This document shows, piece after piece, positions 65-2,564 of a stretch of 2,564 bases of DNA. The DNA lies in sequence record PZ049725.1. The stretch is one strand, 5' to 3'. A model generated the notes under the pieces. It saw only the letters and a program-made list of their open reading frames with translations, ran no database searches and had not been told where the DNA came from. This DNA comes from a phage. Made by a program: the position numbers and the translations under genes. Within the stretch, counting starts at the first letter, position 1. Every line of letters begins with the position of its first letter.

Positions 65-961
65 TTAAGCTCCAGCTTCAACTTTAGGCTTCAATACTGC
101 GAAAGCTCCATCTTTTATTGGCAAGTGAGCTAATCTCATAGTTGCTTTTATAGCTATCATGTCATTTTCAGCCAATGAAAGTGGTTTACCATCTCCCATA
201 GTTACTGATTGTAACGTAGCTTCTTTTAATATTTCAAACTCGATACCCTCTCTTATCCCAACTATAGATTTTGACCAATCACCGCATAATAACTCTGCTT
301 TAGTTTTATCAAATGCACCATTTCTAACAAAAGTTAAAGGTAAATCATATAAAGAATTTTCTTTCATACCCATAACCGCTAATTGATTTCCATTTGCATC
401 TCTTAAGTTTCTTAATTCCCTCTTCAATCCGTAATGTCCAGCAAATCCGTTTGGATCTAAGTTTTTATCTTCTATTTCAGCCATAACATCAGATATATCT
501 AAATCTAAAGATTGTGTATTTCTTGTTATTACATTTCCTGCGTCTGTAGCTGATTTTAATACATTTCCTGTGAATGGAGAGTCAACTCCAAATAAACAAG
601 CTTTATCTATTGTTGTATAGAAAGCTTCGGCTATTTGAGGTTTTAATTCTGAAAATACATCTATAGTAGTATCATTTAATTTTTCTCTAGTAACAGGTAT
701 TATTACAGCTATTTTTTTAGCTTGCATTTCTGGGAATATCCAAGAAGCTTTAGAAGTGTTTATTCTTTCAGATTCTCCAACCCAGTAAGCACCTGGCTTA
801 TCTGCCCATACTTGGAATTTCATAGTATCAGACTTCATAGGCTTAACATCTGATAACTGTAATATCGATGAACCTCTTGCTATTTCATCCATTATCCCAG
901 GAGCAACCTCAACTGGAACAAACCCTTTTAAATTATCCTTTAAGTATTTAGTATCCGCCAT
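65..961 (-). CDS. Phage major capsid protein, HK97-fold type (298 aa), no N-terminal delta/scaffold domain
   Basis: Complete ORF from ATG at 959-961 to TAA at 65-67. Purine-rich RBS (AAAGGATGG, complement of ~971-980) lies about 9 nt upstream. It sits immediately downstream of a coiled-coil scaffold-like gene, the canonical scaffold-then-capsid order. The translation (MADTKYLKDNLKGFVPVEVAPGI...) has the length and composition typical of HK97-family capsid proteins of Firmicutes siphophages. Family assignment is from recognition, not from a search. Confidence 0.8.
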   Translation of the reverse strand: MADTKYLKDNLKGFVPVEVAPGIMDEIARGSSILQLSDVKPMKSDTMKFQVWADKPGAYWVGESERINTSKASWIFPEMQAKKIAVIIPVTREKLNDTTIDVFSELKPQIAEAFYTTIDKACLFGVDSPFTGNVLKSATDAGNVITRNTQSLDLDISDVMAEIEDKNLDPNGFAGHYGLKRELRNLRDANGNQLAVMGMKENSLYDLPLTFVRNGAFDKTKAELLCGDWSKSIVGIREGIEFEILKEATLQSVTMGDGKPLSLAENDMIAIKATMRLAHLPIKDGAFAVLKPKVEAGA

Positions 962-980: not shown

Positions 981-1547
981 TTATTTTCTTAATGAATTAT
1001 TTCTGATAGCATCCATGAAAGTTGATTGACTATCATTGCCATCTGATTTGTTATTATTTCTAGCAAAATTTCCTACCCCTCCTGTATCTTGAGGAGTGTT
1101 ATCTTCAAATAGATATTTTTTACTTTCTTTTAGAGAACTTATTTGTTCTTCTAATCCTACTATTTTTCCATCTTCTAACTTCAAGTTTTCTTTTGTTAAG
1201 TACACCTCCAAAGCTTTACTATCTATACACCCAGCTTCTTTCAATGCATCTCTTAATGAATAGCTAAAGTCCTTATCTTCTGCTTCTTTTTTAAGTTTCT
1301 CTATAGTCTTTTCATGTTCTCCAATAGTACTTTGAAGAGTTTGGTTGTCAGAGTTATTCTTCTTTAAAGTTTCTATTGTTTTGCTAGATGTTTTCAATTG
1401 AGTTTCTAATTCTTTTTTCTGATCATTAACTTTATCGAATCTAGCTTTAGGTATAAAGTTTCCATCATCAACCATTATCTTTTTATCTCCAAGTTTTTCT
1501 ACAACTTGGTTATAAAGTTCTTCGCCTAATAATTGTTTTAAATCCAT
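981..1547 (-). CDS. Phage scaffolding protein (coiled-coil; Phage_GP20/DUF4355-like), 188 aa
   Basis: Complete ORF from ATG at 1545-1547 to TAA at 981-983. GGAGG (complement of 1557-1561) lies 9 nt upstream of the ATG. N-terminus MDLKQLLGEELYNQVVEKLGDKK...FIPKARFDKVN followed by a long E/K-rich heptad-like region and an N/S/D-rich C-terminal tail, which is typical of phage scaffold proteins. Position directly upstream of the capsid gene supports the call. Confidence 0.7.
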   Translation of the reverse strand: MDLKQLLGEELYNQVVEKLGDKKIMVDDGNFIPKARFDKVNDQKKELETQLKTSSKTIETLKKNNSDNQTLQSTIGEHEKTIEKLKKEAEDKDFSYSLRDALKEAGCIDSKALEVYLTKENLKLEDGKIVGLEEQISSLKESKKYLFEDNTPQDTGGVGNFARNNNKSDGNDSQSTFMDAIRNNSLRK

Positions 1548-1732
1548 TACTTAGCACCTCCATCTATTTTTATCTTCCCTAGCTTAACTATTATTTCATT
1601 GTCACTATTTATTTCAGCTATAGGATTTTCATATTTTTCAATATCGAGCTTCACAGAAATAGTTGGAGTACTTGGAGTATTTGTAAACCAAAGTGTATTA
1701 TTTGGATTAAAATCAATTTTAATATCTTTCAT
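1547..1732 (-). CDS. Small hypothetical protein (61 aa) in the head module; start reassigned to an internal ATG
   Basis: The track ORF 1547..1771 begins at an ATG with no Shine-Dalgarno sequence. The in-frame ATG at 1730-1732 (MKDIKIDFNPNN...) is preceded by a perfect GGAGG (complement of 1739-1743) with a 6-nt spacer. Its TAA stop (1547-1549) overlaps the scaffold ATG (1545-1547) as TAATG, suggesting translational coupling. No recognisable domain by eye. Confidence 0.55.
   Translation of the reverse strand: MKDIKIDFNPNNTLWFTNTPSTPTISVKLDIEKYENPIAEINSDNEIIVKLGKIKIDGGAK
1557..1561 (-). promoter_or_regulatory. Shine-Dalgarno site (GGAGG) for the scaffold gene, embedded in the 3' end of the upstream small ORF
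   Basis: Plus strand reads cctcc at 1557-1561, so GGAGG on the minus strand, 9 nt upstream of the scaffold ATG at 1545-1547. Confidence 0.6.
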
Positions 1733-1738
1733 TTGTAT

Positions 1739-1743
1739 CCTCC
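1739..1743 (-). promoter_or_regulatory. Shine-Dalgarno site (GGAGG) for the 61-aa ORF
   Basis: Plus strand reads cctcc at 1739-1743, so GGAGG on the minus strand, 6 nt upstream of the ATG at 1730-1732. Confidence 0.7.
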
Positions 1744-1787
1744 ATACGTTTTTTAGTTGTAACGACAACATAGATTAAGCTTGATTT

Positions 1788-1836
1788 GTTCTTTTACGCC
1801 TGCAATAGAAGCTAAAAAGGCGCATAAAAAAAGAAC
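1788..1836. repeat. Bipartite imperfect inverted repeat (8-bp outer arms plus 5-bp inner arms)
   Basis: gttctttt (1788-1795) pairs with aaaagaac (1829-1836), and cgcct (1797-1801) pairs with aggcg (1818-1822), around a 16-nt loop with an asymmetric internal bulge. It lies immediately downstream (in minus-strand sense) of the stop of the orphan frame and about 55 nt upstream of the small-ORF RBS. Confidence 0.3.
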
Positions 1837-1941
1837 TTATAAAAAGTCCTTACCGTATTCTTTAAACCATTTATCTAGTTTTGCATTGCTTTCACCGTCT
1901 ATCCAATTTCTAAGTTCCTCGCCTATTTGGTCGAGTTCTTT
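1837..1941 (-). other. Start-less protein-like open frame (34 codons plus stop): candidate 3' exon or C-terminal remnant of an upstream gene
   Basis: Minus-strand frame translates to KELDQIGEELRNWIDGESNAKLDKWFKEYGKDFL and ends at TAA (1837-1839). It is bounded upstream by an in-frame TGA (1942-1944). It contains no in-frame ATG, GTG or TTG. Its composition (G, E, D, W, R) is less AT-biased than the surrounding spacer. It is on the same strand as every other gene and in a different frame from the HNH ORF. Confidence 0.3.
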
Positions 1942-1960
1942 TCAAGCACTGGTATAGTAG

Positions 1961-1992
1961 TACATATAATAAAAGCACCTAATTAAAGGTGC
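1961..1992 (-). terminator. Candidate intrinsic terminator or structured RNA element at the 3' end of the HNH gene
   Basis: Minus-strand RNA forms a 6-bp stem (GCACCU, loop UUAAUU, AGGUGC; plus coordinates 1975-1992) followed directly by a U-rich tract UUUUAUUAUAU (complement of 1964-1974). The HNH stop codon (1983-1985) sits in the loop. The stem is short with 4 GC pairs, so this is marginal. Confidence 0.35.
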
Positions 1993-2564
1993 ATATCCGA
2001 TAAATATTTATAAAATTGTTTTCTAGTTGTTTTTTCACCTTTATATTTGTTGTGAAATTTATTATGACAACTTACACAAAGAGTTACTCCATTGTCTAAA
2101 TCTAATCTTAAATCTTTATGATCATAGCTATCCAGATGGTGTGCCACTAAATTGTATCCATCATCTTTGGTTTTACCACATATCTTGCAAGTATAATCAT
2201 CTCTTTCTCTAACACTTTTACTCCAAGACTTATATCCAAATATTCCACGATTTTCAATTCTATGATTTTCGGATATATTGTTATCATATCTTCCATTGTT
2301 TTTACCACTATTAGCTTTAGATATTTTCCTTTTATACTCTTTCGTCTGCATTACTTTTCTAAGATTATCCCTGCTTTCAGTAGAGTTTAAATAAGTATTG
2401 GCTATGTTTTTAGAATTATTTACAAATGCTTCTCTGTCGGATTTATCTGTATTCTTCCACCAATTATCAAAAGCTTCTTTTCTGCTTCTTGTATTAATTC
2501 CTAATTTTCTTAATTGTCTTGATAAATTTCCACTATCACAATTAAGTTCTTTAGATATCATAGG
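1983..2564 (-). CDS. HNH-family (beta-beta-alpha-Me) endonuclease, likely homing-type; 5' end may lie beyond the window edge
   Basis: ORF open to the right edge of the window; first in-window ATG at 2559-2561; stop TAA at 1983-1985. The C-terminal region (aa 125-170 of the in-window ORF, about nt 2052-2189) contains the HNH signature: C-K-I-C ... N-L-V-A-H-H-L-D ... N-G-V-T-L-C-V-S-C-H-N-K-F-H, i.e. two CxxC pairs, catalytic His and a conserved Asn. The N-terminus (ISKELNCDSGNLSRQLRKLGI) resembles a short helix-turn-helix DNA-binding motif seen in phage homing endonucleases, followed by a basic K/R/N-rich linker. Confidence 0.85.
   Translation of the reverse strand, partial: PMISKELNCDSGNLSRQLRKLGINTRSRKEAFDNWWKNTDKSDREAFVNNSKNIANTYLNSTESRDNLRKVMQTKEYKRKISKANSGKNNGRYDNNISENHRIENRGIFGYKSWSKSVRERDDYTCKICGKTKDDGYNLVAHHLDSYDHKDLRLDLDNGVTLCVSCHNKFHNKYKGEKTTRKQFYKYLSDMHL

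Follow-up and report, generated by a model that had tools for sequence, protein, structure and literature searches.

An optional small gene that probably uses the ribosome-binding site of the scaffold leader in a phage head operon

Main finding

The present analysis concerns a 2,564-nucleotide (nt) stretch of phage DNA (sequence record PZ049725.1, hereafter the window) and, within it, an open reading frame (ORF) of 61 amino acids (aa) located directly ahead of the scaffold protein gene. Judged from sequence comparison, this ORF appears to be a real, conserved coding gene, carried between the Shine-Dalgarno (SD) sequence of a structured leader and the ATG of the scaffold gene, and it appears to be dispensable in close relatives. 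We consider it very probable that the gene is real, that it forms a dispensable cassette and that it is expressed by borrowing the SD of the leader. It probably stands outside the head-assembly machinery, to which an earlier note on this DNA had assigned it. Coordinates below are window positions unless a relative is named, and minus-strand features are given from high to low. All genes of the window are carried by the minus strand, and the features on which the argument depends are as follows.

1547..1732, minus strand: 61-aa ORF, from the ORF call and its translation (ATG 1732..1730, TAA 1549..1547)
1739..1743, minus strand: SD sequence GGAGG of the 61-aa ORF, with a 6-nt spacer (ATACAA)
1836..1733, minus strand: non-coding leader of ~105 nt
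1745..1813, minus strand: structured leader resembling GP20-b, a candidate for the cis-regulation of PF06810 'GP20' scaffold genes, from a covariance-model match to RF03003
1545..1561, minus strand: junction module GGAGGTGCTAAGTAATG, comprising the scaffold SD within Gly-Gly codons, Ala-Lys, TAA and the overlapping scaffold ATG
981..1547, minus strand: scaffold protein gene, 188 aa, PF06810 (Pfam 1.4e-35; PHROGs phrog_194)

A polymorphic slot between leader and scaffold

The content of the interval between leader SD and scaffold ATG was surveyed by a scripted pass over fetched loci and by further look-ups. All relatives come from metagenome or Logan contigs. Four states were found.

Slot empty: L019, L020, L022-L027, and L028, which was read separately
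Slot with the 61-aa ORF family alone: window, L002-L014, L031, L032, L035-L037, L039
Slot with the 61-aa ORF family followed by an 88-aa PF13876 gene: L015, L016, L033, L034
Slot with the PF13876 gene alone: L029

The earlier note took the ORF for a component of the head-assembly cassette, and named its absence from syntenic relatives as an observation that would speak against it. Such absence is what the survey found, in 10/10 IMG/VR scaffold relatives, and the claim was not borne out. The closest case is L019, in which the scaffold is 90% identical, the leader is near-identical and the ORF is absent, so that the locus reads ...CGTATGGAGGATATTGAAATG(scaffold). Both L019 and L020 have the near-identical leader, with 7 nt from the SD to the scaffold ATG.

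The PF13876 (Phage_gp49_66) matches (70.7 and 71.2 bits in our own Pfam scan) belong to the Acb4 anti-CBASS sponge family (bioRxiv 10.1101/2024.12.30.630793). In L015 and L033/L034, the stop of the 61-aa homologue overlaps the Acb4 ATG (ATGA), reading GGAGGGTGTAAGCAATGA. Stop/start coupling is thus generic, and the ribosome-binding site (RBS) and TAATG overlap, which had been taken as signs of a role in head assembly, lose that meaning, the homologues being coupled in the same manner to Acb4 in L015, L016, L033 and L034.

The alleles of the cassette are saturated at synonymous sites and their flanks are near-identical, which looks like the pattern of old alleles shuffled by recombination. The polarity, filling by insertion as against emptying by deletion, we infer from more distant relatives in which the slot is empty. 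Scans revealed no promoter or terminator within the cassette.

Start, stop and junction of the ORF

Inspection of the sequence reproduced the anatomy described earlier: a GGAGG (1743..1739) and a 6-nt spacer precede the ATG of the small ORF, the TAATG at its end shares A1547 between the TAA (1549..1547) and the scaffold ATG (1547..1545), and the translation matches the quoted 61-aa sequence exactly. The statement that this is the best RBS of the window was correct as to the strength of GGAGG; it needs amending as to rank, as it is tied by the scaffold's own GGAGGTG (1561..1555), which is at least as good. This scaffold SD is spelled by the Gly-Gly codons of the 61-aa ORF, whose last codons are GGA GGT GCT AAG TAA. 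It is exposed, the RNA structure around it being not significant (z = -0.78); an RNA structure that would hide it and enforce coupling was rejected on the same value. As the scaffold has its own exposed SD, its translation would not be dependent on coupling alone. Co-expression with the scaffold, also proposed in the earlier note, therefore stands by sequence anatomy; the head-assembly part of that proposal does not. A longer, 74-aa reading from the ATG at 1771 is unlikely, as this ATG has no SD and is found within a leader hairpin. The same ATG also occurs in a relative without the ORF.

In L002, the 17-nt junction GGAGGTGCTAARTAATG recurs, with one synonymous difference, between the scaffold and its next gene. 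Since it is reused elsewhere, the overlap and the 'GG-x-K' tail would represent a portable device for ribosome hand-over and not a sign of partnership with the scaffold.

As a side observation, the junction can be written GGAGGTGCTAA(G/A)TAATG (Gly-Gly-Ala-Lys-stop/Met) at the two gene boundaries (window 1545..1561 and L002 10085..10101), and it gives unrelated proteins one common 'GGAK' C-terminus.

The structured leader

GP20-a and GP20-b have been described as candidate cis-regulatory RNAs directly upstream of 'GP20' (PF06810) genes (PMC10690425). The window leader matched RF03003 at 1813..1745 over model positions 1-62 of 62, with 25.9 bits (expectation value, E, of 0.009 for the whole window and 7e-4 locally), a score below the gathering threshold of 36.2 bits. 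The GP20-b-like element ends one nt ahead of GGAGG. In six IMG/VR relatives (L022-L027), GP20-b was found at 38.8 bits, ~10 nt before the scaffold ATG and with no ORF between; the window leader aligns column for column with it. Across a set of six leaders, two stems are held in common, in which five pairs show compensatory changes. The window leader is thus homologous to accepted GP20-b members, sharing their structure and covarying stems. However, these members adjoin the GP20 gene, whereas the window element is separated from it by a coding cassette of 186 nt. The leader is directly upstream of the scaffold in L019, L020 and L022-L027, and stands 190 nt before the GP20 ATG in the window. As the leader SD of the relatives serves the scaffold directly, the so-called best RBS of the window would be the RBS of the scaffold leader.

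Further structure was read from the leader sequence. Between 1745 and 1836, a long stem made of a U7 run and the conserved GGCGUAAAAGAA core is followed by a second hairpin, GUUGU/ACAAC, and the U7 run is predicted to pair with the leader GUAAAAGAA. The leader may act on the scaffold as a translational operator, or else as a terminator/anti-terminator; autoregulation of the scaffold is known from phage P22. A sigma-70 promoter was also considered and was not found in the leader by consensus scan. The following feature belongs to the same region.

1826..1849, minus strand: terminator-like hairpin GGACUU/AAGUUC with the U7 run, where the MuF-gene remnant ends, read from sequence

This hairpin has a compensating variant, GAAGC/GCUUC, in L011, and it was not picked up by the consensus terminator scan.

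Coding status, family and predicted structure

In a 5.8-billion-protein index, the only entries obtained were the identical protein, for which 11 contigs were read, and one homologue at 75%. HMMER was run exhaustively over 1.84 billion representatives and, with a subsequent profile search, gave a family of 53-123 aa in ~12 clusters, one member of which carries the name Paraclostridium bifermentans hypothetical protein. This one NCBI protein name, together with an HNH homologue from a Romboutsia metagenome-assembled genome, points to Peptostreptococcaceae as the host group. A tblastn search with the 61-aa and 123-aa members against 50,697 isolated-phage records gave no match, and no relative was confirmed when GTDB representative genomes and IMG/VR were scanned with patterns back-translated from the family profile. 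A later scan of IMG/VR with the leader pattern found one family member, L039.

The N-terminal part of the family is hypervariable in length and sequence. All members have in common a C-terminal block of ~35 aa, V.V..E.YE.PI.E.N.DNEVVVK.GK.KIGG.K, which reaches the C-terminus and is conserved across alleles that are 34-54% identical; its conserved residues include Y34, K50 and K53. Over the conserved 33 codons of three divergent alleles, the proportion of synonymous differences (pS) was 0.6-0.96, that is saturated, versus 0.27-0.31 for non-synonymous differences (pN), and substitutions were depleted at codon position 2. The block thus appears to be under purifying selection at the amino-acid level. 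The 61- and 67-aa alleles differ by in-frame indels of 6 and 12 nt. The earlier conclusion that the ORF is a real gene is supported by this conservation, by the in-frame indels and by the pS/pN values. Antisense ORFs of 55-75 aa were found within neighbouring genes (the window has 31% GC), so that ORF length is by itself weak evidence of coding; for ATG ORFs of at least 61 aa, 5 were observed versus 0.75 expected in shuffled sequences.

The copy in L039 (IMGVR_UViG_2663763516_000002, 2087..2267) is a P0015-like member with a 10-aa insertion, behind the same leader. In the stored sequence, 1 nt seems to be missing ahead of the GG tail (…VVKLGKLR*), at which point the locus stops; either a frameshift in this allele or a fault of assembly could account for it.

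AlphaFold2, run with a 12-sequence alignment, predicted a single long amphipathic beta-hairpin with strands 28-41 and 47-57. The predicted local distance difference test (pLDDT) score was 92-95 over residues 31-50, and residues 1-20 were disordered. The 61-aa protein would thus be composed of a disordered N-terminal part of ~20 aa, a hairpin at residues ~25-57 and the GGAK tail. As a lone amphipathic hairpin cannot stand alone, it presumably has to form oligomers or join a partner by strand addition. When the ORF and all 12 family members were scanned against Pfam, PHROGs, NCBIfam and PADLOC, nothing rose above noise, and Sequestin (PF21825) was not matched in the Pfam scans of the family. The absence of any recognisable motif had been remarked upon in the earlier note, and profile searches and structure prediction likewise gave no known family or fold. 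The possibility raised there of a decoration-like protein or an assembly cofactor found no matching family in Pfam, PHROGs, NCBIfam, the PDB or Foldseek.

Residues 45-59 of the ORF product (1553..1600), NEIIVKLG--KIKIDGG, resemble scaffold residues 13-29 (1461..1511), NQVVEKLGDKKIMVDDG. In this local alignment, 8/17 positions are identical, with a pairwise E of 0.028 and an hhalign probability of 0.5%. The resemblance is probably a compositional chance, a partial duplication of the 5' end of the scaffold gene being the less probable alternative.

Head-operon context

In the direction of transcription, the window comprises the HNH gene, a MuF-like remnant, the leader, the 61-aa ORF, the scaffold and the capsid. 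The closest characterised relative of the scaffold is SPP1 gp11 (gene 11), with 41% identity. The remaining features of the window are the following.

65..961, minus strand: major capsid protein gene, 298 aa, HK97-type PF05065 (Pfam 2e-34)
1837..1965, minus strand: duplicated 3' remnant (~130 nt) of a MuF-like minor head gene, out of frame through the loss of 1 nt, behind the HNH cassette
1983..2564, minus strand: HNH homing-endonuclease gene (NUMOD3 + HNH, PF01844; Pfam), its 5' end cut by the window edge
1992..1975, minus strand: terminator hairpin of the HNH gene (terminator scan)

The identical 61-aa protein accompanies PF03864 and PF05065 capsids, and a 102-aa allele accompanies PF20036, PF03864 and PF05065 capsids; each of the two occurs with three length variants of the MuF gene. 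The 61-aa protein thus travels with different capsid folds, which speaks against the proposed role in head assembly. Scaffold residues 1-~165 are 80-83% identical across capsid types (PF05065 vs PF03864), and the last 25-35 residues vary with the capsid type (window 981..1060 vs L002 9995..10099 and L012). This is consistent with a scaffold tail that binds the capsid and would be exchanged together with the capsid gene.

Other variable genes are found in the same operons. Phages of the same group carry a Tad2-like gene (PF11195, 79 bits) in the interval from portal to MuF. The MuF-scaffold interval also holds HNH cassettes (window, L029, L035) and a 146-aa gene of unknown function (L011). We placed no reliance on the precomputed PF24729 (Acb2_Tad1_hairpin) label of a 128-aa gene, as our own Pfam scan at E <= 0.01 did not reproduce it. 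Both this gene and the Tad2-like gene belong to the genes of anti-defence type in the portal-MuF interval (L013 4525..4980, L002 7913..8299, L012 4373..4759), which are often stop/start-overlapped with the portal. A transfer RNA gene (Rfam 44.7 bits) is found upstream of the terminase genes in L012 (225..290).

HNH cassette and MuF remnant

The full HNH product is of 227 aa, the window ATG at 2561 being internal. In L029, the gene (2755..3495, 227 aa) has a GTG start behind AGGAGG and its own TTGAAT-17-TATAAT-like promoter, and a similar HNH gene is found at the same place in L035. The gene appears to be a free-standing cassette of homing type. The alternative of a group I intron surrounding it was rejected, as no Rfam match was obtained and the L029 gene is free-standing with its own promoter.

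The remnant at 1837..1965 is a non-functional duplicate of the last ~40 MuF codons and, compared with L008, L019 and L029, lacks 1 nt of an A run. In L029, the HNH cassette is preceded by an intact MuF-like gene and followed by the same duplicate. Such a duplicate would be expected if the HNH element had moved with flanking donor DNA. The MuF-like gene itself exists in a 310-aa form (L008, L011, L019) and a 274-aa form (L004 ~2440..2485, L007, L020 1463..2287), in which a 1-nt deletion removes the last ~36 residues (...DFALQYPY*). As the shorter form recurs in independent contigs, it is probably real, and the C-terminal tail of MuF seems dispensable.

Interpretation and alternatives

We propose that an optional cargo cassette would sit between the leader SD and the scaffold ATG and would initiate from the leader's GGAGG, and that its last codons (GGA GGT GCT AAG TAA) would rebuild an SD and an overlapping stop/start for the next gene, namely the scaffold in the window and Acb4 in some relatives. 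The protein would be synthesized late, from the scaffold/capsid message, and scaffold translation would be left undisturbed; from this arrangement, the 61-aa product is presumed to be made at scaffold-like levels. It would act either in oligomeric form or by adding a beta-strand to a partner. Counter-defence appears to be the likeliest role, because the family shares its slot with Acb4 or adjoins it, because sponge genes are present in the operon, and because the protein is small and would need to oligomerise. Nevertheless, a counter-defence or host-interaction function is suggested by association, and we hold it at somewhat below an even chance. The explanation as a whole, from real gene and optional cassette through the mode of expression to a role in host interaction or counter-defence, stands evenly between being right and being wrong.

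Several observations weigh against it. A profile search of PDB sequences returned only a marginal ribosomal-protein match (E 0.055), and Foldseek of the AlphaFold2 model against the PDB and BFVD gave nothing at E <= 0.001; the latter result was expected, because the model is a bare hairpin. Comparisons by hhalign with Acb4, the Tad2-like gene, the 128-aa post-portal gene and a 5-sequence Lockin profile all gave probabilities <1%. Most members of the family are acidic to neutral, with isoelectric points mostly of 5-6.7, and the members of 53-67 aa comprise little beyond one hairpin, leaving little room for a ligand pocket. The base composition of the cassette is not deviant (27% GC versus 29-34% for its neighbours) and gives no sign of foreign origin. 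Also, the gene always adjoins the start of the scaffold operon, in 20+ contigs, and is found nowhere else, as a scaffold-related role would equally predict. Finally, the associations come from one handful of related metagenome contigs and may reflect shared ancestry.

The foremost competing explanation, which we find unlikely overall, is a non-essential head-assembly accessory, whose hairpin would bind the portal or the conserved first ~165 aa of the scaffold and would tune procapsid nucleation or scaffold availability, coupled translation keeping the protein in proportion to the scaffold. The constant position at the head of the scaffold-capsid block agrees with this, as do the stop/start coupling of most alleles to the scaffold, the need of a lone amphipathic hairpin for a partner, and the constancy of scaffold residues 1-165, the supposed partner region, while the capsid-binding tail changes. 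The local similarity to scaffold residues 13-29 would fit as well, although it is insignificant by profile comparison. However, the gene is missing from all ten IMG/VR scaffold relatives, including the one with the 90%-identical scaffold, Acb4 takes the place of the scaffold as the coupled gene in four contigs, the N-terminal part is hypervariable, and no head, scaffold or decoration family is matched.

It is quite improbable that the ORF is only a leader or upstream ORF, with a functionless peptide, whose translation relays the regulation by the GP20-b leader to the scaffold. Its position, with a candidate cis-regulatory RNA on one side and the gene under regulation on the other, is what such an ORF would have, and its tail is dictated by the downstream ribosome-binding site; yet the purifying selection over ~33 codons with saturated synonymous sites, and the confident predicted hairpin retained across the 34-54% identical alleles, argue for a functional product; in addition, relatives do without the ORF, and the scaffold is provided with an exposed SD of its own. 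That the ORF arose by chance in AT-rich non-coding DNA can hardly be credited at all: antisense ORFs of similar length do occur at this GC content, but a strong SD, a reading frame left intact by indels that total 18 nt, a family whose substitutions follow a coding pattern and the excess of long ORFs over shuffles are against it.

Comparison with known systems

Among immune-signal sponges, Acb4 is the nearest by position, as it occupies the same slot in L029 and directly follows the homologue in L015, L016, L033 and L034. Like the 61-aa family, it is a short protein expressed from the structural operon. However, there is no sequence or profile similarity between the two, the 61-aa protein being predicted as a single long beta-hairpin with a disordered N-terminus. 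Known sponges are short homo-oligomers, and the Lockin anti-Thoeris sponges are short, beta-rich, hexameric and absent from model phages (bioRxiv 10.1101/2025.07.12.664507). Lockin and the 61-aa family are alike in being short, predicted mostly-beta, elongated phage proteins without annotation. They differ in that their profile-profile probability is 0.3% and in that the motifs GWMKSTK and VQVTTQQ are absent from the 61-aa family. Of the traits of such sponges (Acb2, Acb4, Tad1, Tad2, Lockin, Sequestin), the family is short (53-123 aa), phage-borne, shares its slot with or adjoins PF13876, and has a Tad2-like gene in the operon; no homology was found to the validated families compared (Acb4, Tad2, Lockin, Sequestin) or to any PDB chain. 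As to the positively charged pockets with which homo-oligomeric sponges bind a nucleotide signal, the overall isoelectric points of the family speak neither for nor against them.

The cassette also recalls the morons. Classical morons, a concept that comes from lambda and HK97, carry their own promoter and terminator. The present cassette resembles them in its presence or absence between collinear genomes, in the alternative cargos at one site and in being dispensable to the core. It differs in having no promoter or terminator of its own, and in that it takes over the SD of the displaced gene, for which it supplies another.

In the MuF/gp7-scaffold interval of SPP1 (genes 8-10), 80alpha (gp45) and phiCT453A (gp28-32), small hypothetical ORFs are found as well. 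They occupy the same interval of the SPP1-like head module as the 61-aa ORF, the comparison being one of position. The 80alpha gp45 was tried as a homologue, and no alignment with the 61-aa protein was obtained.

Significance

An optional cargo gene in a late operon is of a known kind; docking between SD and ATG behind a structured leader is a variant of it. Should the ORF be a head-assembly accessory after all, it would represent a dispensable partner of the scaffold, of narrower interest. If our proposal is true, coupling and a strong RBS within a structural operon would not be evidence of a structural role. It would also show a precise entry of cargo into an essential late operon, in which Gly-Gly codons of the cargo rebuild the SD, and it may explain 'GP20 leader' RNAs that do not adjoin GP20. 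A rule for the search of further cargo would follow, namely to inspect the interval between GP20-type leaders and scaffold starts, and an unannotated family of Paraclostridium/Romboutsia-type phages would be nominated for anti-defence screens. It is a possibility, one that we rate at about one chance in three, that the beta-hairpin family represents a new kind of counter-defence protein, a sponge or inhibitor acting as an oligomer and carried along by the regulatory leader of the scaffold, and that in phages of Peptostreptococcaceae the gap between the SD of GP20-type leaders and the scaffold ATG serves as a dedicated docking slot for anti-immunity cargo, receiving this family, Acb4 or both and leaving scaffold expression undisturbed.

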